Shown: positions 4,777 through 21,877 of the stretch, one piece after another
How the letters are laid out: each line of letters starts with the position of its first letter
How positions within the stretch are numbered: position 1 is the first letter of the stretch
Source of the DNA: Candidatus Nomurabacteria bacterium
GTDB taxonomy: Bacteria; Patescibacteriota; Minisyncoccia; Phycocordibacterales; UBA9973
Reading direction: 5' to 3'
NCBI GenBank assembly: GCA_052035195.1
Contig: JBPOHU010000003.1
Location: 17,453 to 81,452 of the forward strand
DNA length: 64,000 bases
Notes under the pieces: model-generated
What the model was told of the DNA's origin: nothing
Databases searched by the model: none
What the model saw: only the letters and a program-made list of their open reading frames with translations
Translations under genes and position numbers: made by a program

Positions 4777-5229
4777 ATGAAGATGTCTTATAGGGAAGAA
4801 GAGTTGCCAAAAGTTGCTTCTTTAGTGCTTTCAAATACTCAAAAAAATGATAGTGGGGCTACTATTATCGCCCTCTCTGGCCCCCTTGGAGCAGGTAAAA
4901 CCTCTCTTACTCAAGCTGTTGCACAAGAGTTAGGAATAAGTGAAAAGATAGTAAGTCCGACTTTTGTTATTGCTAAATGGTACAAAACTTCAAAAGGTGA
5001 CTTCGAAGAAATGGTTCATATTGATGCTTATAGGATTGATGGAGAAGAAGAGCTTGGTCCAATAGGCTTCAATTCTCTTTTAGAGAAGAAAAATACTCTT
5101 ATTGTGTTAGAGTGGCCAGAACGACTCCCAAAAACTTTATCAGAAAATCATGCCTCACTTTTTATTTTGGAACACGATGGTGATATTAGAAAAATAGAAG
5201 GACCTATTTCCTATGAAGAAAGAAAATAA
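4777..5229 (+). CDS. tsaE: tRNA threonylcarbamoyladenosine biosynthesis ATPase TsaE (YjeE)
   Basis: P-loop ALSGPLGAGKTSLTQ and typical TsaE length. Start MKMSYREE at 4777; ORF-track start 4747 lies inside the terminator hairpin. Confidence 0.7.
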   Translation: MKMSYREEELPKVASLVLSNTQKNDSGATIIALSGPLGAGKTSLTQAVAQELGISEKIVSPTFVIAKWYKTSKGDFEEMVHIDAYRIDGEEELGPIGFNSLLEKKNTLIVLEWPERLPKTLSENHASLFILEHDGDIRKIEGPISYEERK

Positions 5230-7567
5230 AAAAACACTAGTTATTCTTGATGCGCACGCGATTATTCACCGTGCTTATCATGCTCTACCATCTTTCACTA
5301 CAAGTGCGGGGGAGCCAACAGGTGCTCTTTATGGTGTTACAACAATGACACTTAAGATAATAGAGAATTTTAAACCTGACTATATTGTTGCGGCTTTTGA
5401 TTTGCCAAAGCCAACATTTCGCCACCAAGTATATGATGGCTATAAAGCAGGGCGAGTAAAAGCAGAGGATGCTCTTGTAGTTCAACTTCAAAGCGCGCGT
5501 ACTTTATTTGAAGCATTTGGTATACCAGTGTTAGACGCTGAAGGTTTTGAGGCCGACGATGTTATAGGGACTTTGGTAGAAAAATATAAAAAAGAGAAAA
5601 ACCTAAATATCATAATTGCATCAGGGGATATGGATACTATGCAACTTATTGATGGAGACAAGGTAAGAGTGTTTACCTTAAAGAAAGGACTAAACGATAC
5701 TGTTCTATATAACGAAGATATGGTTAAAGAACGGTTTGGTTTTGGCCCGTTACAGCTTGTTGACTATAAAGGGCTCAGAGGTGATGCATCTGATAACATC
5801 ATCGGTGTTCCTGGTATAGGAGAAAAAACAGCTACAACTATATTGAGTGTTTTTAATTCGATTGAGAATTTATACAAAACACTAGAAAAGGATAGAAATG
5901 CTGTTATAAAAGCTGGGGTTTCAGAAAGAATGGTAGGTATTTTAGAGGAACACAAAGAAGATGCTTTCTTTTCAAAAACCTTAGCAACTATTCGTCGGGA
6001 TGCTCCTATAGAGTATTCTCTCCCTGAAAAGTCTTATAAAGAAGAGGTTGATACCAAGAAACTTTTGGAATTATTTGAAAAGTATGAGTTTAGAAGTCTT
6101 GGTCATAGAATAAAAAGTATTTTTTCTATACAAGAAGAACAAAAAGAAATCGAAGATATAGATGAAGAGTTGCTTAGAAAGACAGCTATAGCTCTCTGGG
6201 TTTTGTATTCTGAAAATACCAATGCTGACTATGAGACAGTTTTACAAAAGACAAAAACAAATTCTCTATTAGAGGCTTGGAAAACTATTCAAGAAGAATT
6301 AAATAAAAGAAATTTAACAAAAGTTTTTTCTGAAATTGAAGAGCCTTTGATTCCTTTGGTTAAAGAGATGGAGGACAGAGGCATCTTGATCGATAAGGGT
6401 CATTTTGAAAAAATGAAGACCTCAATAGAAAAAAGATTGAGAGAAATAGAAAAAGAAGTAGAAGCTATGGTTGGTGTTTCTATAAACCTCAATTCTCCAA
6501 AACAACTTTCAGGACTCCTGTTTGATACTCTGGGTCTTAAAACAAAAGGTAAAAGAAAAGAAAGCGGTGCTTTTACTACAAATGCTGAAGCTCTCGAAGC
6601 TCTTCGTGAAGCGCACCCTGTTATACCTCTTATTCTTGAACAACGTGAAATACAAAAGATACTGACTACTTATGTTGAGAGTCTTTTGAAGCACGTGGCA
6701 GAGGACGGCAGAATTCATGCTAAATTTTTACAACACGGCACGACTACAGGAAGGTTTTCTTCAAATGATCCTAATATGCAAACTTTGCCTGCCGGAGGAG
6801 ATTGGGGTAAAGAAGTTCGACATGGGTTTTTGGCAGACAAGGGTCACATCTTCATAGGTTGTGACTACTCTCAAATAGAACTTCGTGTTTTAGCTATGCT
6901 CTCTGGGGATAGTAGGTTGCTTGAATCTTTTGAAAGAGGGGATGATATCCACGCTTCCGTGGCGTCTTTGGTTTTTGGTGTTCCACAAAACGAAGTCACT
7001 CCTGACATGCGACGTAATGCAAAGGTTATAAATTTCGGAATAATATATGGCATGGGTGTTCAGGCTTTACAAAAGAACCTTGGAACAACAAAAGAAAAAA
7101 CAGAACAATTTTACAAAGAATATTTTGAAGCATTTCCTACAATAAAATCTTATCTTGATGGGACTAGAGACTTTGCTAAAGAGCACGGATATACAGAAAC
7201 AGCTTTTGGTAGAAGGAGGTATTTCCCAACAATTTCTTCCCCAGCACCTTTTCTGCGAGCTTTTGCAGAGCGAATGGCAACTAATGCTCCTCTCCAGGGG
7301 ACAGCTGCTGATATTATTAAATTAGCGATTATTGATATTGATAAAGCTCTTAAAAAAGCAGGACTTAGAGATGATGCTCATCTTGTTTTACAAGTTCACG
7401 ATGAACTTGTTTATGAAACTAAGAAAGAGAAGCAAGAAGAAGTTAGGGCAATAATAGTTTCTTCAATGATTAAGGTTATGGATAATTCTCCAATCCAGCT
7501 CAAGATTTCTCCTGTTCCATTGGCTGTTTCTGTAAGTACTGGGGTTTATCTGGACGAACTTAAGTAG
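5213..7567 (+). CDS. polA: DNA polymerase I (5'-3' exonuclease plus polymerase domains, no 3'-5' exonuclease domain)
   Basis: FEN-like N-terminus LVILDAHAIIHRAYHA; pol motifs DYSQIELRVLA, RRNAKVINFGIIYG, QVHDELVYE; 784 aa. Confidence 0.9.
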   Translation: MKKENKKTLVILDAHAIIHRAYHALPSFTTSAGEPTGALYGVTTMTLKIIENFKPDYIVAAFDLPKPTFRHQVYDGYKAGRVKAEDALVVQLQSARTLFEAFGIPVLDAEGFEADDVIGTLVEKYKKEKNLNIIIASGDMDTMQLIDGDKVRVFTLKKGLNDTVLYNEDMVKERFGFGPLQLVDYKGLRGDASDNIIGVPGIGEKTATTILSVFNSIENLYKTLEKDRNAVIKAGVSERMVGILEEHKEDAFFSKTLATIRRDAPIEYSLPEKSYKEEVDTKKLLELFEKYEFRSLGHRIKSIFSIQEEQKEIEDIDEELLRKTAIALWVLYSENTNADYETVLQKTKTNSLLEAWKTIQEELNKRNLTKVFSEIEEPLIPLVKEMEDRGILIDKGHFEKMKTSIEKRLREIEKEVEAMVGVSINLNSPKQLSGLLFDTLGLKTKGKRKESGAFTTNAEALEALREAHPVIPLILEQREIQKILTTYVESLLKHVAEDGRIHAKFLQHGTTTGRFSSNDPNMQTLPAGGDWGKEVRHGFLADKGHIFIGCDYSQIELRVLAMLSGDSRLLESFERGDDIHASVASLVFGVPQNEVTPDMRRNAKVINFGIIYGMGVQALQKNLGTTKEKTEQFYKEYFEAFPTIKSYLDGTRDFAKEHGYTETAFGRRRYFPTISSPAPFLRAFAERMATNAPLQGTAADIIKLAIIDIDKALKKAGLRDDAHLVLQVHDELVYETKKEKQEEVRAIIVSSMIKVMDNSPIQLKISPVPLAVSVSTGVYLDELK

Positions 7568-9552: not shown

Positions 9553-9649
9553 ATATATAAAGGTAACTTGAGATGAGGTTTTATGCAAGGGAAGAATCTC
9601 TTAGGCACAAAATATAAAAACACCAACTTCTTGGTGTTTTTATATTTTG

Positions 9650-9722
9650 TGCCCTCAGTAGGATTTGAACCTACGACCGTCTCCTTAAGAGGGAGCTGCT
9701 CTACCAGCTGAGCTATGAGGGC
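9650..9722 (-). tRNA. tRNA-Lys (anticodon CTT)
   Basis: Manual cloverleaf: acceptor GCCCTCA/TGAGGGC, D arm GCTC..GAGC, anticodon loop CTCTTAA, T arm GTAGG-TTCAAAT-CCTAC; 73 nt. Confidence 0.8.
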
Positions 9723-9825
9723 AATTATTATTAGTACCTATTTGATGTTGTTGCGCGGGAGCCGCTACAACTTAGCTATGAGGGCATATTGCAAAAAGGC
9801 AAAAAAACTATACCATGACCACCAT

Positions 9826-10293
9826 ATGCAAGCAATACTAGTCTTACACGATATAAGAAGTGCCCAAAATGTGGGGTCTCTTTTTAGGACTTCTGATGCC
9901 CTAGGAATATCAAAAATATATCTAAGTAAAATAACACCTTGCCCAATAGACCGATTCGGAAGAGGGCGTAACGATATAGCCAAAACAGCACTCGGTGCCG
10001 AAAAAAGTATTTCTTGGGAACAGTATGAAGATATATTTAATGTATTAGAAAAATACAAAGCAGAAGGGTATCTTATAGTAGCAATAGAACAATCAAAAAA
10101 TTCTGTAGATTATAAAAAGGTTTTGGCTAAAGAAAAAACTTTATTTATTCTGGGTAATGAAGTAGAAGGTTTATCCAGTGAAATATTGGAAAAGGTGGAT
10201 TTTGTCGCTGAAATACCTATGGCAGGAGATAAGGAGTCTCTTAATGTGTCCGTTGCTGGCGGAGTAGCGTTGTTTAGGATTCTAAACAAATAG
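9826..10293 (+). CDS. SpoU/TrmH family RNA 2'-O-methyltransferase
   Basis: MQAILVLHDIRSAQNVGSLFRTSDALG ... LFILGNEVEGLS ... PMAGDKESLNVSVAGGVALF typical SpoU motifs; start taken at first in-frame ATG after the tRNA. Confidence 0.7.
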   Translation: MQAILVLHDIRSAQNVGSLFRTSDALGISKIYLSKITPCPIDRFGRGRNDIAKTALGAEKSISWEQYEDIFNVLEKYKAEGYLIVAIEQSKNSVDYKKVLAKEKTLFILGNEVEGLSSEILEKVDFVAEIPMAGDKESLNVSVAGGVALFRILNK

Positions 10294-10294
10294 C

Positions 10295-10462
10295 TTATCT
10301 ATTTTTTAGTTCGTCTATTGTATAAGGTCTACCTCCTTCTATGGGGGCTGGTTGCTCTAATAGTTGTCTATTTCTATTTTCAAATCTAGTTGGTCCGCCA
10401 GTAATAAGCCAAAGTATCCAAAGACCTATAAAAGCATATATAAACCATTTTAGTTCATCCAT
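10295..10462 (-). CDS. Small membrane protein (55 aa), hypothetical
   Basis: ORF MDELKWFIYAFIGLWILWLITGGPTRFENRNRQLLEQPAPIEGGRPYTIDELKNR with one TM; below the ORF-track size cut-off. Confidence 0.3.
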   Translation of the reverse strand: MDELKWFIYAFIGLWILWLITGGPTRFENRNRQLLEQPAPIEGGRPYTIDELKNR

Positions 10463-13653: not shown

Positions 13654-13665
13654 GTTTAGAAAAAT

Positions 13666-13813
13666 GGTCCTCTCGGTAGGACCGCTACGCTTATCTCCCT
13701 CGACTAAAACTGTTGCAACAGTTTTGTCTGGGCACCGACTCAACTGTTTTGTCTGCTGACAAAACATGTTTCCGTCGTTCGATTCCTACACGCACGACAA
13801 GAAGTTGTCGTGC
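13666..13813 (+). repeat. tRNA-linked structured repeat element, copy A (convergent with tRNA-Arg-GCG)
   Basis: Homologous to copies B, C and D. Blocks CTCCCTCGAC, GTCTGGGCACC, CTGCTG, AAAACAT and CCG.GTTCGATTCCTACACGCA, then terminal hairpin gcacgacaagaagttgtcgtgc. 5' end ggtcctctcggtagga is a direct copy of + strand 13859-13873 (the tRNA 3' end); gttcgattcctac is an inverted copy of the tRNA T arm. Confidence 0.6.
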
Positions 13814-13859
13814 TCTCAAGGATAATGTAAAAAGCCCCGCATGGGGGCTCATTACATTG

Positions 13860-13931
13860 TCCTCTCGGTAGGAATCGAACCTACATCATAACTTCCGCAA
13901 AGTTACGTCCTATCCATTGAACGACGAGAGG
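13860..13931 (-). tRNA. tRNA-Arg (anticodon GCG, unusual)
   Basis: Manual fold: acceptor CCTCTCG/CGAGAGG, D stem GTTC/GGAC, anticodon stem TAACT/AGTTA, loop TTGCGGA, T arm GTAGG-TTCGATT-CCTAC; A20 present; 72 nt. Confidence 0.6.
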
Positions 13932-14767: not shown

Positions 14768-14831
14768 AAAATTGATTAAATTAGTATTATGGTTTTAGTA
14801 TAGCAAATTAGTTATTTTGGTAAGGTTAATA

Positions 14832-14975
14832 GGGGATTCTCCCTCGACTTTTTCCTCGTCAGTCACTCGGAAAAGTCTGGGCACCAGCTCGCTTGTTTTT
14901 CCTGCTGGAAAAACATAGCTCCGCTGTTCGAATCCCCACACACGCAAAGCAGTTTGCGTGTTCCACCTCCGCAAA
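14832..14975 (+). repeat. tRNA-linked structured repeat element, copy B (convergent with tRNA-Ser)
   Basis: GGGGATTC...GAATCCCC closing stem. Hairpin 1 is GACTTTTTCC-loop TCGTCAGTCACTC-GGAAAAGTC. Hairpin 2 is GTTTTTCC-TGCT-GGAAAAAC. Terminal hairpin acgcaaagcagtttgcgt. GTTCGAATCCCC matches the tRNA-Ser T arm. Confidence 0.6.
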
Positions 14976-15010
14976 TAAAAATTACCCAATTTATGGGTAA
15001 TTTTTATTTG

Positions 15011-15095
15011 CGGAGGTGGGGGGATTCGAACTCCCGGTACCTTGCGGTACTCCTGTTTTCAAGACAGGTGCACTAAACCACTATGCGACACCTCC
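15011..15095 (-). tRNA. tRNA-Ser (anticodon TGA)
   Basis: Acceptor GGAGGTG/CACCTCC, anticodon stem-loop CCTGT-CTTGAAA-ACAGG, long variable arm GTACCGCAAGGTAC, T arm GGGAG-TTCGAAT-CCCCC; 85 nt. Confidence 0.8.
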
Positions 15096-18574: not shown

Positions 18575-18673
18575 CAAGCGAGAGAAATAGAAAGTTTATT
18601 TTCGTATTTTCGAGCGTAGCGCTCCCGGAAAGCTCAGCTTACGAGGGAGCACAAGCGAGAGAAATAGAAAGTT
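18568..18673 (+). repeat. 29-nt perfect direct repeat (18568-18596 and 18645-18673) beginning inside the tRNA-Arg(TCT) 3' end
   Basis: gggagcacaagcgagagaaatagaaagtt occurs twice, 77 nt apart; between them gctcccgg (inverse of the tRNA acceptor 3' strand) forms a mini stem with the second gggagc. Confidence 0.7.
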
Positions 18674-18706
18674 CACTTTAGTAACTCGTGACCACATTAT
18701 AGACTT

Positions 18707-18778
18707 GCGCTCTTAGCTCAGTGGTAGAGCAGCGCTTTTACACAGCGAAGGTCGGGGGTTCAAATCCCTCAGGGCGCA
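18707..18778 (+). tRNA. tRNA-Val (anticodon TAC)
   Basis: Acceptor GCGCTCT/AGGGCGC, D arm GCTC-AGTGGTA-GAGC, anticodon loop TTTACAC, T arm GGGGG-TTCAAAT-CCCTC. Confidence 0.85.
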
Positions 18779-18826
18779 CATAATACAAAAGACACCAAAT
18801 TTGGTGTCTTTTGTATTATGTGCAAA
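18779..18826 (+). terminator. Long hairpin terminator after tRNA-Val
   Basis: cacataatacaaaagacaccaaa-ttt-ggtgtcttttgtattatgtg. Confidence 0.6.
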
Positions 18827-20092: not shown

Positions 20093-20176
20093 GCGCGGGT
20101 GGCGAAATTGGTAGACGCACTACCTTGAGGTGGTAGCCCCAGCAATGGGTTGGAGGTTCAAGTCCTCTCTCGCGCA
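20093..20176 (+). tRNA. tRNA-Leu (anticodon GAG)
   Basis: Acceptor GCGCGGG/CTCGCGC, D arm GGCGAAATTGGTAGACGC, anticodon stem-loop CTACC-TTGAGGT-GGTAG, long variable arm, T arm GGAGG-TTCAAGT-CCTCT; 84 nt. Confidence 0.8.
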
Positions 20177-20225
20177 CATAAATGAAAAAGTCCCAATTAT
20201 TTGGGATTTTTTCATTTATGTGAGA

Positions 20226-20371
20226 AACAAACAAGACTGCTCTTGTTTGAGTGAGGACTTGAACAGCGGAGCTATGATTTATCACCAGATAAATCAAGCG
20301 AGCTGGTGCCTAGGCTTTCTTGAGTGGCTGACGAGAGAAAAGGCGAAGGAAAGATTCCTCTCTCGCGCACA
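20226..20371 (-). repeat. tRNA-linked structured repeat element, copy D (sense is the - strand; lies 3' of tRNA-Leu)
   Basis: Reverse complement aligns with copy B: ...CTCGTCAGCCACTC loop, CCTAGGCACCAGCTCGCTTG, hairpin ATTTATC-TGGT-GATAAAT, CATAGCTCCGCTGTTCAAGTCCTC. + strand start GAGGACTTGAAC is an inverted copy of the tRNA-Leu T arm; + strand end TCCTCTCTCGCGCAC directly copies the tRNA-Leu 3' end (20162-20176). Confidence 0.6.
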
Positions 20372-20407
20372 AAAATGATTTAGAGACAAAAACCCCGAAA
20401 GGGGTTT

Positions 20408-21409
20408 TTGTCATGTTATAATTTTTATATGCATCTTTTTATTGGTCTCATTGCTTGTCTAGTAGGAGTCTTTATTTCTTCGTATTTACTTATAAAGAAA
20501 TACAAAAACCAAAAACTAGCTTGTCCAAGAGATAATCCTTGTGACAGTGTTACTCATAGCTCTTTTTCTAAAACCTTTGGAATACCAAATGAGATTTTAG
20601 GTTTATTTTATTTTTTAGCAGTTGGTTTTTTGATAATAAATATTTTACTAACAGGGGGATCACCCTGGGTTATTTACTCTTTATTTTTTATTGTTATTTT
20701 TGGCGGATTATTTTCTGCTTACCTTGTAGGATTACAGGCTTTTGTTATCAAGGCCTGGTGTATTTGGTGTTTAGGAGTGGCTTTTTCAAATCTTGTTCTT
20801 ATTGTCAGCCTTTTTGGTATTCCAGCGGAAAATATTTTTCCAATACTTTCTTCACAGAAAGTATTATGGATTATTGTTCATAATATAGGATTTATTCTTG
20901 GTGTTGGGGCTGCTACTATCACAGATATTTTCTTCTTTAAATTTTTGAAAGACAATGTTATCACTCAAGAAGAAAAAGACACTATGGATACACTGAGCGC
21001 TGTTATTTGGGCAGGACTTGCCATCTTGATTGTTAGTGGAATAGCTCTGTATCTACCAGAACAAGCAAGACTAGCCGTGTCTTCAAAGTTTCTAATAAAA
21101 GTAGTTGTCGTTGGAGTGATTGTATTAAATGGCTTTTTGTTAAATATGATAGTTGCTCCAAATATGAGAAGGCTTTCTTTTGAAGGAGGTCTCCCAGAAA
21201 AGAGGTTTCGTCGCCTAGCTTTTGCTCTTGGTGGAATATCTTTTTCTTCTTGGTATATAGCTTTTTTCTTAGGAGTATTACGCAGAATTCCTGTCGATTT
21301 TAATTTTGCCTTATGGGCATATCTAACAATGCTTGTTTTTGTGGTAATAGGATCACAGATTACCGAAAGATTTGTAACAAAAAATCACTTACCACGAAAA
21401 TCTGAGTAA
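20408..21409 (+). CDS. Vitamin K epoxide reductase (VKOR) family domain fused to a C-terminal multi-TM domain
   Basis: KLACPRDNPCDSVTHSSFSKTFGIPNEILGLFYF and TM CxxC (AWCIWCLGV) typical of bacterial VKOR; 333 aa. Start may be the downstream MHLF. Confidence 0.65.
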   Translation: MSCYNFYMHLFIGLIACLVGVFISSYLLIKKYKNQKLACPRDNPCDSVTHSSFSKTFGIPNEILGLFYFLAVGFLIINILLTGGSPWVIYSLFFIVIFGGLFSAYLVGLQAFVIKAWCIWCLGVAFSNLVLIVSLFGIPAENIFPILSSQKVLWIIVHNIGFILGVGAATITDIFFFKFLKDNVITQEEKDTMDTLSAVIWAGLAILIVSGIALYLPEQARLAVSSKFLIKVVVVGVIVLNGFLLNMIVAPNMRRLSFEGGLPEKRFRRLAFALGGISFSSWYIAFFLGVLRRIPVDFNFALWAYLTMLVFVVIGSQITERFVTKNHLPRKSE

Positions 21410-21484: not shown

Positions 21485-21557
21485 GGGGATTATGGTGTAA
21501 CGGTTAACACTGAGGTTTGTGGAACCTTCGATTCGGGTTCGATTCCCGATAGTCCCC
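21485..21557 (+). tRNA. tRNA-His (anticodon GTG) with encoded G-1
   Basis: G-1 plus acceptor GGGATTA/TAGTCCC with discriminator C, D arm GTGT-AACGGTTA-ACAC, anticodon loop TTGTGGA, T arm TCGGG-TTCGATT-CCCGA. Confidence 0.8.
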
Positions 21558-21564
21558 CAAGACC

Positions 21565-21597
21565 AAAAATCTGCAACTACAATGTTGCAGATTTTTG
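21565..21597 (+). terminator. Rho-independent terminator after tRNA-His
   Basis: aaaaatctgcaac-tacaat-gttgcagattttt. Confidence 0.6.
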
Positions 21598-21599
21598 CG

Positions 21600-21840
21600 T
21601 CTATGGAGGACATTAAAGAAGCAAACTGCTTTGCTTCTGTTCGGAATCGAAAGGCGCAGCTATGCCGATAGGCAAGCGAGCCGGGGTCGCGAGTACGTAT
21701 GAGCTTGAGTTTGTCGAAGGCGAATTAGTAACTCGTGACCGATTCCCGATAGCCCCTGCTCTGACGAGAGAAAAGTCGACCGCGTGCCGCCATAGCTTTA
21801 GCGGTGGAGCAGGGAGATAAGCGTAGCGGTCCCGATATTC
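21600..21840 (-). repeat. tRNA-linked structured repeat element, copy C (sense is the - strand; convergent with tRNA-His), with internal insertion
   Basis: - strand reads GGACCGCTACGCTTATCTCCCT (22 nt identical to the copy A 5' end), then GTCGACTTTTCTCTCGTCAG, GGCTCGCTTG, CATAGCTGCGCCTTTCGATTCC and hairpin agaagcaaagcagtttgcttct (all as in copy B). + strand 21740-21757 cgattcccgatagcccc copies the tRNA-His 3' end. Also contains the TTAGTAACTCGTGACC motif. Confidence 0.55.
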
Positions 21841-21877
21841 CTTGGTTCAAATCAATTTTTCTGCTAATCTAAAAAAC

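Follow-up and report, generated by a model that had tools for sequence, protein, structure and literature searches.

Several described systems are points of reference for the elements examined in this study. The integron attC site and the attP(+) hairpin of CTX phage (XerCD) are strand-specific recombination sites made of a folded single strand; in attC, the R″ (RYYYAAC) and R′ (GTTRRRY) boxes pair at the base of the hairpin, and the crossover is at G|TT. MITEs are marked by terminal inverted repeats and by a short target-site duplication that arises from insertion. The PATE of the IS200/IS605 group have similar subterminal hairpins at both ends, insert 3′ of a fixed 4-5 nt target, carry no host sequence and occur in genomes that encode TnpA or TnpB. 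Group I introns are recognized by a P3-P9 catalytic core, a U·G pair at the 5′ splice site and a terminal G, and they interrupt their host gene. Finally, the bridge RNA of IS110 elements, which is about 177 nt long, has two internal loops, and each loop holds a left and a right guide that address opposite strands; the guides flank the core dinucleotide, and the RNA is encoded in a non-coding end beside the DEDD/Tnp recombinase (PMC11208160).

The window analysed here, a stretch of 64,000 nt, contains four homologous elements, A, B, D and C, one for each of four different tRNA genes. The preliminary description had located them behind the genes for tRNA-Arg(GCG), tRNA-Ser(TGA), tRNA-Leu(GAG) and tRNA-His(GTG), respectively, and both the homology and the positions are confirmed by alignment, with offsets of 45-58 nt from the tRNA. 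The shared blocks exceed chance: the block CAAGCGAGCTGGTGCC, with up to three mismatches, is matched three times against 0.19 expected, and GGGAGATAAGCGTAGCGGTCC twice against 0 expected. A search for additional copies had been suggested, and a covariance model made from the window copies, when run on the window and on contigs of CPR/Patescibacteria, produced 74 matches. Among the matches that were tabulated, 52 of 72 sit 8-66 nt behind tRNAs on the same strand, and these tRNAs comprise 27 anticodon types. There are also targets other than tRNAs, namely a tmRNA gene with a unit behind it (confirmed in locus L151) and the 3′ end of a topA gene (L156). The units are about 180-200 nt long, have no ORF inside and keep a constant orientation relative to their tRNA. 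In some loci 4/5 or 3/3 of the tRNAs carry one, and in the window 4/7.

The family appears to be widespread in CPR/Patescibacteria and to be undescribed. Units lack annotation in every genome examined, and full-text literature searches turned up no description of the family. [quoted passage not shown] The lack of an Rfam match even at permissive thresholds agrees with the initial statement that this is not a described RNA family and, together with the covariation reported below, with the claim of a novel structured nucleic acid. An exact look-up of the RuvX protein, made for strain variants, returned one short contig, which begins just after the tRNA.

The organization of a unit is illustrated by element B, which lies on the minus strand, as does its host, tRNA-Ser(TGA) (15011..15095; ARAGORN and Rfam, with the T-loop mapping read from the sequence). 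The complete 188-nt unit extends from T-loop nt 57 to the last core nucleotide (14840..15027) and corresponds to the repeat unit of tandem arrays; its right boundary comes from a comparison of junctions across copies, and we infer the left one. Nucleotides 57-76 of the tRNA-Ser (15010-15027) probably came in with the element. A palindrome with perfect 25-bp arms, which is the tRNA terminator, can be read at 14963..15019; it consists of the acceptor 3′ strand, the trailer and the terminator tip, and then the reverse complement of these. Its distal arm is half 2 of a segment that we call the guide (14963-14972), which matches the tRNA at 11/11 positions. Between the guide halves is hp3, a 9-bp hairpin with the loop CUGC (14940..14961), identified by folding and covariation, with double changes in 9/9 pairs. 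Guide half 1, GGGGAUUCGAAC (14926..14937), is the reverse complement of tRNA nt 53-64; 11/11 scored positions are complementary to tRNA-Ser, and the full 12 nt are read from the sequence. In the minimum-free-energy fold, the 5′ part of guide half 1 forms stem P1 with the distal tRNA copy. The two arms of the core, as defined by the fold and covariation, are P2 (CAGC-GGA-GCU-A-UG / hairpin 2 / CA-AGC-GA-GCUG; 14885..14925) and P3 (CCC-A-GAC / hairpin 1 / GUC-GA-GGG; 14841..14881), and hairpin 1 of P3 has a tandem G·A and a GACUG loop. The sequence and the junction comparison place the displaced original tRNA-Ser 3′ end at 14810..14839, in which GAAUCCCC (14832-14839) has kept its P1 pairing with the guide, and the acceptor part has decayed.

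The remaining copies can be divided in the same manner. Element A is one unit (13696..13876; 117.7 bits with the covariance model, supported by a terminator scan and the sequence), and its host tRNA-Arg(GCG) is at 13860..13931 (ARAGORN, Rfam), both on the minus strand. Its parts on that strand are a terminator hairpin (13832-13850), hp3 (13792-13813), the guide (13777-13789) and the core (13696-13776), and the sequence then shows an extra 12-nt module (UAAGCGUAGCGG) and the displaced tRNA-Arg 3′ end UCCUACCGAGAGGAC (together 13665..13695, minus strand). Element D, on the plus strand, is also a single unit (20160..20350; 116.5 bits, and fold) and belongs to tRNA-Leu(GAG) (20093..20177, plus strand; ARAGORN, Rfam). 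It contains a palindromic terminator (20175-20222), hp3 (20228-20249), the guide (20253-20264), P2 (20265-20305) and P3 (20309-20349), all on the plus strand, and the displaced original tRNA-Leu 3′ end with 8 nt of native trailer follows at 20351..20378 (plus strand; sequence and empty-site comparison), after which come the native terminator and the VKOR promoter. Element C, behind tRNA-His(GTG) (21486..21558, plus strand; ARAGORN, Rfam), was initially taken as one element; it is homologous to the others but composite, with one unit and the remnant of an older one, both on the plus strand. Unit 1 (21541..21740; 50.9 bits, and sequence) has a core of variant 2 ending in AGUAACUCGUGACC, with hp3 at 21617-21638 and the guide at 21642-21651. 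The older unit 2 (21741..21841, read from the sequence) is partly deleted; what is left of it is a 3′ copy of tRNA-His, one half of hairpin 1 and GGGAGA-UAAGCGUAGCGG, with a final displaced piece of the tRNA-His 3′ end behind them. The palindrome with which a unit starts qualifies as an intrinsic terminator, by the scan for A and as read from the sequence for B, D and C; it leaves the core unexplained. The hairpin that had been described as terminal is real, but it is located between the halves of the inverted copy and is preceded by this long palindrome.

The guide is thus a two-part antisense segment located after the terminator and complementary to tRNA nt 54-76, and hp3 splits it exactly at the boundary of T-stem and acceptor. 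When guide half 1 is compared with the adjacent tRNA, 389 positions are matched and 31 mismatched. The right-hand junction of the unit lies between T-loop nt 56 and 57: nt 57 follows the target (G or A), the preceding nucleotide does not, and the unit's replacement tRNA 3′ end begins at nt 57. On the left side of the junction the guide also reaches nt 54-56, where it covaries with the tRNA, GAA facing UUC and, in tRNA-Met, GCA facing UGC. The arrangement noted at the outset, with the inverted copy proximal to the tRNA and the direct copy distal, holds and extends to the 27 anticodon types. A reading of the guide as a direct copy of the T arm was rejected, since the inverted reading matches 12-13 of 13 positions and the direct one 9 of 13. 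The idea of a primer-binding site, with the guide on mature tRNA-CCA, was also set aside, because the complementarity enters the gene-encoded trailer and not CCA. It should be noted that the perfect pairing of guide and tRNA need not have caused the targeting; it could have arisen after insertion, through correction templated by the hairpin.

The core, about 90 nt long, has its 3′ end abutting the 56|57 junction. Together with P1, the helix of guide and repeat, it forms a three-way junction with two long arms, P2 and P3, that contain G·A motifs, and the three-way junction is also found in single-sequence folds. The compensatory changes that had been noticed in the hairpins of the window copies were borne out when covariation was measured on 69 distinct sequences: 97.2% of cells are paired, compared with about 40% when the partners are slid, changes on both sides occur in 36/37 pairs, and 0/500 shuffles attain the observed covariation values; the signal is strong in all of the helices. 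In the internal loop of P2, G115, A116 and A56 are invariant in 57/57 distinct sequences. The elements had been assigned to the strand opposite the tRNA, but 41 G-U cells against 13 A-C cells, together with G·A loops that are invariant, indicate that it is the tRNA-sense strand that folds; the fold is also more stable on the sense than on the antisense strand. No pseudoknot was detected in the core. A hammerhead or box C/D interpretation of the CUGACGAG loop was discarded because what looks like a loop is a stem that contains tandem G·A pairs and has a GACNG loop of its own, and the tandem G·A is replaced by Watson-Crick pairs in other copies. Kissing between the loops of hp3 and hairpin 2 was likewise discarded, since it fits B only and the loops, compared by eye, do not covary.

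Sequence comparisons show that the elements are insertions. Empty sites, which the preliminary description proposed as a check, are present in the relatives L177 and L178, where the tRNA-Leu and tRNA-His sites occupied by D and C are vacant and the order of the genes (L19, tRNA-Leu, VKOR, tRNA-His, rhodanese gene) is the same. The distal tRNA 3′ repeat runs on into the native trailer, terminator and promoter. Tandem units exist, one of which shows a perfect 41-nt repeat composed of the tRNA 3′ end and spacer; the flanking repeats range from 16 to 41 nt. At the topA end in L156, the proximal and distal copies encode a near-identical peptide and have many synonymous differences, and the replacement end must therefore be foreign and element-borne, and the flanking repeat brought in rather than duplicated at insertion. 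A diversity-generating retroelement was considered for the duplicated topA end and rejected, the differences not being adenine-specific. The unit carries its own copy of the target 3′ end and a palindromic terminator, which leaves the gene intact. Displaced to a position farther downstream, the original 3′ end forms a direct repeat and subsequently decays, and its acceptor part has decayed in about half of the copies. The idea of a tRNA 3′ end mimic as a designed feature is not supported; the distal copy is the displaced original, which often decays. The earlier notion of a MITE-like footprint at tRNA genes holds in its main points: insertion is supported by empty sites, by continuity of the native flanks and by tandems, but the units are not random footprints of decayed islands, and the reading is better put as a discrete, structure-conserved family of complete ~190-nt units.

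Displaced older units decay, and only the tRNA-proximal unit is kept intact. Loci with homologous flanks have the element in common, with flanking genes only 68-76% identical, and in these diverged genomes the element apparently occupies the same sites. The stems of such copies differ almost entirely by compensatory changes (11 double, 1 single). Because the fold is kept at shared sites in diverged genomes, the proximal unit is probably still active or has a resident function, and a resident function explains its long-term conservation there no less well than ongoing mobility does. GC skew, examined for replication-strand bias, does not reveal an origin between the tRNAs of opposite orientation. 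Neither a free nor a circular form was found. A viral origin was rejected, as scans of IMG/VR, followed by nhmmer and BLAST, yielded no copy among viral contigs.

With regard to enzymes and expression, there is no recombinase, transposase or reverse transcriptase beside any copy, and clustering of 306 ORFs from element-bearing loci yielded no recurrent neighbour protein family. Pfam scans of 41 of the window ORFs gave housekeeping families or no match and no mobile-element enzyme, with no integrase, IntI, TnpA or TnpB seen among them; the sole Transposase_20 signal was a sub-threshold match inside RuvA. Most cores are separated from the tRNA promoter by a terminator; in several copies there is none between tRNA and element. 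Because of the terminator that precedes most cores, and because no promoter for the core is evident, any expression of the core as RNA is putative.

We consider it probable that the units constitute a new family of non-autonomous, protein-less insertion elements that target the T-loop, with the folded single strand as their targeting or functional module. Under such a mechanism, the active module would be this folded strand, either as RNA from read-through transcripts or as ssDNA. The guide would pair across the T-loop site and set the element's 3′ end beside the 56|57 phosphodiester, strand exchange could be performed by an enzyme whose gene is at another place in the genome or, with less likelihood, by the RNA, and repeated insertion into the regenerated tRNA would give tandem arrays. 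More tentatively, we propose a gene-free, guide-programmed integrating element whose folded RNA or ssDNA would select the insertion site through ~22 nt of pairing over the T-loop junction and would then recruit a host or CPR-specific enzyme, or would itself be a new small ribozyme that reverse-splices into tRNA. A rather unlikely scenario is that the insertion was ancient and the unit is now a resident functional non-coding RNA, with the proximal unit serving the cell on read-through tRNA transcripts. Such an RNA might be tRNA-like and released by RNase P and RNase Z, with an acceptor-like stem, hp3, P1 as a T-like stem and the core in place of the T-loop; or it might act in cis, pairing with its own tRNA along the 3′ half. 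Occupation of the same sites extends to genomes whose flanking genes are only 68-76% identical, stems change compensatorily, core positions are invariant, the proximal unit alone is intact while displaced units decay, most tRNAs carry one in some loci (4/5, 3/3; 4/7 in the window), and several copies have no terminator between tRNA and element, all as would be expected of a resident RNA. Yet the same tRNAs lack the element in close relatives, a terminator precedes most copies, tandem accretion and the foreign topA end attest to recent mobility, and no function can be named. The distal acceptor part, moreover, has decayed in about half of the copies, and complete tRNA-like closure is therefore not required.

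Splicing chemistry is an improbable basis for the family. The units would then be miniature self-splicing or reverse-splicing elements whose core is a small ribozyme and whose guide resembles the internal guide sequence of group I introns, holding the last T-loop nucleotides of 'exon 1' (nt 54-56) and the first nucleotides of its own 5′ end or of the distal 'exon 2'; they would enter tRNA transcripts and become fixed in DNA through reverse transcription. It is true that the guide spans both sides of the junction, that the 3′ end of the core abuts it, that the distal copy can take the place of the proximal one in P1, that the fold and invariant purines are on the RNA-sense strand, and that group I introns are abundant in CPR genomes, tRNA genes included (PMC13011429). 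However, the cores have no similarity to Rfam ribozymes or introns at E values up to 10, and at ~90 nt show no detectable pseudoknot and, by eye, no covariation between loops; the boundaries have neither U·G nor a terminal G, no reverse transcriptase was seen nearby, and cores remain intact where the distal copy has decayed (e.g., in B), so that splicing there would be pointless or harmful. It is very improbable that the units are ordinary double-stranded att-site remnants, left after deletion, of tyrosine-integrase islands or prophages inserted in the T-loop, with hairpins that are terminators and protein-binding inverted repeats. Several traits are reportedly classic of integrase-borne elements, namely the T-loop sublocation, a replacement 3′ end, direct repeats, accretion in tandem and targets that include tmRNA genes and the 3′ ends of protein genes, and the target to the left of the junction (GGUUC) resembles the element end (GUGAC, GGGAC). 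Against this, more than 70 copies share one complete architecture and size, which random deletion end points would not give, and no integrase is near any copy; pairing kept despite sequence change, with strand-asymmetric G-U and G·A, is unexpected for duplex protein sites, and a 22-nt inverted target copy has no role in a classical attP. Lastly, the flanks truly are pieces of tRNA sequence, which might suggest chance similarity or decayed tandem tRNA duplicates lacking a conserved core. This interpretation is refuted by a core that has no tRNA similarity, is conserved over many genomes and 27 tRNA types, and stands far above the shuffle and slide controls.

Although the genomes of CPR bacteria are tiny, most tRNA genes carry a unit in some loci, and the fold is kept by compensatory evolution; something selects for it. 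If the guide directs insertion, the units represent a minimal nucleic-acid-guided integration system that has been naturally reprogrammed over dozens of targets. The guide-programmed reading, if true, would define a new class of nucleic-acid-guided mobile element, possibly a programmable one, because the targets that matching guides already address include one tmRNA gene, one protein gene and no fewer than 27 tRNA types. If instead the unit is a resident RNA, it would add a new class of tRNA-linked RNA to a phylum in which RNA biology has hardly been explored. On a practical level, the units create pseudo-tRNA fragments and may break metagenome assemblies; among the listed homologues of the flanking VKOR gene, many have a longest contig of only 1.1-1.5 kb.

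How, then, do the units relate to the systems introduced at the beginning? With group I introns of CPR tRNA genes they have in common the phylum, the class of host gene and an internal segment that pairs with the exon on both sides of the junction. Those introns are in the anticodon loop, interrupt the gene and match group I models, whereas the units are behind an intact tRNA, are far smaller, have no RF00028 match and have A or C before the junction. The IS110 bridge RNA and the guides of IS200/IS605 elements are similar in being structured non-coding segments that are complementary to both sides of the crossover and covary with the target. In contrast to the bridge RNA, the fold described here is a three-way junction without two guide loops, the guide consists of a single antisense stretch of 22 nt that a hairpin interrupts, and there is no recombinase gene. 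With respect to IS200/IS605 elements the signs are mixed: insertion after the fixed motif GUUC|RA and a 4-nt complement, GAAC, at the foot of a hairpin would fit them; the left end of the unit is tRNA-specific rather than a conserved hairpin, and no TnpA or TnpB is present in the scanned ORFs. A TnpB omega-RNA, with the core as scaffold and the distal copy as guide, was rejected because the intact tRNA gene would be targeted too.

MITEs and cis-mobilisable integrative elements resemble the units in being short, non-coding and multi-copy, with presence/absence differences between relatives and mobilisation in trans, which is presumed here. Unlike those of MITEs, the two ends of the unit do not form inverted repeats, the 16-41 nt repeat in the flanks is not made by insertion (the L156 copies being diverged orthologous sequences), and the units are strictly specific for one position in one gene class; we know of no autonomous parent. 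The likeness to attC and attP(+) lies in the fold and in the outcome: an internal inverse copy pairs with target-derived sequence in a strand-specific fold, the crossover is at the inner end of the resulting helix beside variable or branched structure, the inserted unit encodes no enzyme, and the target is regenerated so that arrays can grow. The guide ends in UUCGAAC, which matches RYYYAAC at 5/7 positions, but there is no GTTRRRY on the 3′ side, the junction is at 56|57 and not 53|54, i.e., 3 nt from the T-loop GTT, and the target is the tRNA T-loop and not attI or dif. Tyrosine-integrase islands and prophages share with the units insertion in the T-loop within the tRNA gene, a replacement 3′ end through which the gene survives, a displaced 3′ end that becomes a direct repeat, tandem arrays formed by repeated insertion, and the use of tmRNA and protein-gene 3′ ends. 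The units differ from them in being about 190 nt long with no integrase gene or any gene at all, in having a covarying single-strand fold as their conserved part, in carrying the target as an inverted copy that a hairpin interrupts, and in being kept at shared sites over diverged genomes.

By its gene content and the names of its homologues, the window (G+C ~37%) belongs to a CPR/Patescibacteria genome of Paceibacteria type. Four of its seven tRNA genes are followed by homologous segments of 150-300 nt: tRNA-Arg(GCG) (13860-13931, minus strand; element A), tRNA-Ser(TGA) (15011-15095, minus strand; B), tRNA-Leu(GAG) (20093-20177, plus strand; D) and tRNA-His(GTG) (21486-21558, plus strand; C). 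Alignment of these segments bore out the four copies of the preliminary description at its coordinates. The blocks they share exceed chance: a 16-mer of B and D occurs three times at ≤3 mismatches versus 0.19 expected, and a 21-mer common to A and C occurs twice versus 0 expected. Element C consists of one unit (21541-21740), the core of which is of a second variant type, followed by what deletion has left of an older one.

Read on the tRNA-sense strand, the tRNA is followed by a long, often perfect palindrome (the arms measure 25 bp in B, 33 bp in the database locus L020), the tip of which resembles an intrinsic terminator. The first arm consists of the acceptor 3′ strand and the trailer, so that the second is the reverse complement of the acceptor 3′ strand, here called guide half 2. 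There follow one A, a 9-bp hairpin (hp3), the dinucleotide GU and guide half 1, reverse-complementary to tRNA nt 53/54-65. The core has two arms joined by the linker GUG: P2 (CAGC-GGA-GCU-A-UG, hairpin 2, CA-AGC-GA-GCUG) and P3 (CCC-A-GAC, hairpin 1, GUC-GA-GGG), with one or two tandem G·A pairs and a GACG-type loop in hairpin 1. It ends in A or C and is at once followed by a direct repeat of the tRNA that starts at nt 57. This distal copy is the partner of guide half 1 in stem P1, which makes the core a three-way junction. The same junction appears in the minimum-free-energy fold of B (-61.8 kcal/mol, z-score -5.4), and the topology is unchanged in the second core variant (GAGCCGGGGUCGCGA ... 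UCGUGACC).

Long perfect palindromic terminators also follow tRNAs that have no element, namely Lys-CTT (window 9600-9655) and Val-TAC (18774-18823); the stem begins 4-5 nt inside the tRNA (GCAC...GTGC), and the 24-bp arms are nearly loopless. Such terminators seem to be a general style in this lineage. The window also holds, at 9723-9790, a partial copy of the tRNA-Lys(CTT) 5′ end (GCCCTCATAGCT...) about 50 nt upstream of that minus-strand gene, followed by GTAGCGGCTCCCGCGC; this duplication is on the 5′ side, unlike the 3′-side elements.

The compensatory stem changes noted earlier hold in a far larger sample. Among 69 distinct sequences, in an alignment whose fitting to the model somewhat inflates pairing, standard pairs fill 97.2% of cells, versus 39-45% after a shift of the 3′ partners by 1-3 columns; both sides have changed in 36 of 37 pairs, and none of 500 shuffles reaches any observed pairing measure. 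When ten sequences were aligned by MAFFT alone, 25 of the 37 pairs already showed compensatory changes. On the sense strand, G-U accounts for 41 cells and A-C, which would be G-U on the opposite strand, for 13. In the internal loop of P2, G54, A56, G115 and A116 are essentially invariant (51 to 57 of 57), and the tandem G·A of hairpin 1 is replaced by Watson-Crick pairs in some members. The G-U excess and the G·A purines, which would be pyrimidine-pyrimidine mismatches on the opposite strand, indicate that it is the tRNA-sense strand that folds, as RNA or single-stranded DNA; the preliminary description had placed the element on the other strand.

Comparison of 40 junctions defines the point of insertion. 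The last core nucleotide is independent of the target, whereas the nucleotide after it tracks the target (G with T-loop UUCGA, A with UUCAA) and tRNA sequence continues onward; the right-hand boundary is therefore T-loop nt 56|57, and insertion is specific to this site. The guide extends to the left of the boundary, over nt 54-56, where it covaries with the target (GAA for UUC; GCA for UGC, in two tRNA-Met genes), and so, split by hp3, it is complementary to the target to either side of the boundary. Of the 420 positions scored for guide half 1, 389 agree with the adjacent tRNA; for guide half 2, all 11 positions agree in 19 of 37 cases. Left of the junction, the two non-tRNA targets read GGGAC and GGUCAC, which, on a reading of a few sequences, are like both GGUUC and the element end GUGAC. 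Some copies (window 13682-13693 and 21818-21829; loci L020, L138 and L150) have an extra module of 12-15 nt that separates the core end from the distal copy of the T stem, either UAAGCGUAGCGG or small hairpins such as CGCGAAGCGUG, and in these tRNA identity begins only at about nt 60/61.

The empty-site comparison suggested in the preliminary description was made by retrieving homologues of the VKOR gene, which lies between tRNA-Leu and tRNA-His, with their contigs. D and C are present, with the same covariance-model scores as in the window, in four contigs whose VKOR is 98% identical. In two relatives, L177 and L178 (VKOR 67-68% identical), the gene order L19, tRNA-Leu-GAG, VKOR, tRNA-His-GTG is kept; merely 32-68 nt follow tRNA-Leu and ~10-50 nt follow tRNA-His, and neither site has a covariance-model match. 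The D and C sites are thus empty in these relatives, and the elements are insertions. The distal tRNA-Leu copy in the window runs into a native-looking trailer and terminator and then a GTTATAAT box before VKOR; the element provides a replacement 3′ end and terminator, and the native end is displaced. At the DNA topoisomerase I gene of locus L156, the last 20-odd topA codons exist in a proximal and a distal copy; the encoded peptides are nearly identical (KTIPERCSDKLCP.HNPHKL), many synonymous sites differ, and the original end is left downstream. This divergence implies that the element carried in its own foreign gene end, with no target duplication. Units also accrete in tandem: three are present in L161, and in L168 a 41-nt 'GTCCTCCACCGCCCAC + spacer' is perfectly repeated ahead of two successive units.

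L178, though lacking D and C, has a variant 2 core remnant (GGGTCGGGAGA ... ATATTTGTGACCA) behind tRNA-Val (822-1002), so that occupancy varies tRNA by tRNA among related genomes. The tRNA-Arg(TCT)-tRNA-Val spacer in the window (18576-18700) is 131 nt versus 35 nt in L177, and includes a direct repeat of 29 nt (GGGAGCACAAGCGAGAGAAATAGAAAGTT, twice) beginning inside the acceptor 3′ strand, an inverse acceptor copy (GCGCTCCCGG) and a variant 2 core 3′ end (TTAGTAACTCGTGACC, as in C). All of this looks like the decayed leftovers of additional insertions, whose junction may have been a different one. For many listed homologues of the VKOR-family gene (window 20429-21409), the longest contig is only 1.1-1.5 kb, about the gene alone, and the flanking tRNA and element repeats may break metagenome assemblies.

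The family is real and widespread. A pattern scan of GTDB species genomes gave 36 stretches, 13 of which were confirmed by BLAST with the four window copies, and 11 of these 13 records bear CPR names (Taylorbacteria, Saccharibacteria, Paceibacteria, Nomurabacteria, Minisyncoccia, Patescibacteria group). A metagenome scan added 34 loci, and a covariance model built from ten cores gave 74 matches (the window and 70 loci). Among the 72 tabulated by position, 52 start 8-66 nt past the 3′ end of a same-strand tRNA, with 27 anticodon types represented; seven are second tandem units, 149-271 nt behind the tRNA; two are identical copies behind a tmRNA gene in L151, called by ARAGORN; two lie behind what reads as a tmRNA-like 3′ end in the truncated contigs L144 and L153; and one is behind the topA 3′ end. 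Orientation relative to the tRNA is constant throughout. Elements follow four of five tRNAs in L139, all three in L031 and in L145, and four of seven in the window. The topA insertion (L156, 221-1700) shows that targets are not confined to tRNA-like genes. A second core family, 'type 2' (GAAAACCUUUUGAG ... CAAAAGGUGUACUG plus a UGUAA hairpin), is also located behind tRNAs (L003, ~4880-5076, minus strand; L012, 1250-1400, plus strand; L159, ~6700-6960 and 10200-10460, plus strand). Its front module (palindrome, 9-bp hairpin, GU, guide) and T-loop junction are those of the main family; its core is apparently unrelated to the main core and has no Rfam match.

The family is apparently undescribed. 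Rfam yielded no match to the main family, all known ribozyme and intron classes included, in keeping with the initial impression that it was no described RNA family. We found no description in the literature, the nearest published work being on anticodon-loop group I introns of Patescibacteria tRNAs (PMC13011429) and on IS110 bridge RNAs (PMC11208160). IMG/VR contigs picked by four diagnostic patterns contained no copy, and no recurrent protein family adjoins the elements. The 41 window ORFs scanned belong to housekeeping families (RuvA, Fpg, MscL, type IV pilus proteins, PolA, PheRS, RecA, FtsK and others) or have no Pfam match, and include no integrase, transposase, HUH enzyme or reverse transcriptase. 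The core has no evident promoter, and GC skew gives no sign that oppositely oriented copies are in different replichores.

The elements also persist. Loci with homologous flanks have an element behind the same tRNA: L147, L162 and L020 behind Gly-TCC (flanks 74-76% identical), L022 and L012 behind Thr-TGT (68%), and L030 and L166 behind Ala-TGC (67-82%). L147 and L162 share an older-unit remnant distal to the element, which supports orthology of their elements. Between copies at such loci, core identity is 71-91%, stem differences are nearly all compensatory doubles (e.g., 11 doubles versus 1 single) and terminator tips are unalignable; tRNA-displaced units decay. The compensatory changes and the decay of displaced units together indicate that the tRNA-proximal unit is selected for its fold, and hence either that the unit stays active or that it acts where it is located.

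These persistence data favor a resident RNA linked to its tRNA; however, the sites are empty in relatives and the distal acceptor decays, and we rate that explanation lower. A small reverse-splicing ribozyme would be attractive on geometry but is unlikely. Remnants of classical duplex att sites, also rated lower, are contradicted by the uniform architecture of the copies and by covariation that is strand-asymmetric. We conservatively file the family as non-autonomous, tRNA-targeting integrative elements, with a substantial chance that guide and fold set it apart as nucleic-acid-guided elements of a new kind.

For such an integrative element, base pairing by the folded single strand would set the element 3′ end at the target phosphodiester, and the exchange would be done by an enzyme encoded elsewhere. 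One possibility for the acquisition of new tRNA specificity is hairpin-templated correction against the neighbouring tRNA. The element does not have the consensus boxes of integron attC or the two internal guide loops of the IS110 bridge RNA, and its target is a T-loop, not the dif site of CTX attP(+). Insertion after a fixed motif (GUUC|RA) and a GAAC complement at the foot of a hairpin fit the IS200/IS605 family, but the left end is tRNA-specific and not a conserved hairpin. In its logic the element resembles both the folded-strand sites attC and attP(+) and the guide-bearing insertion sequences.
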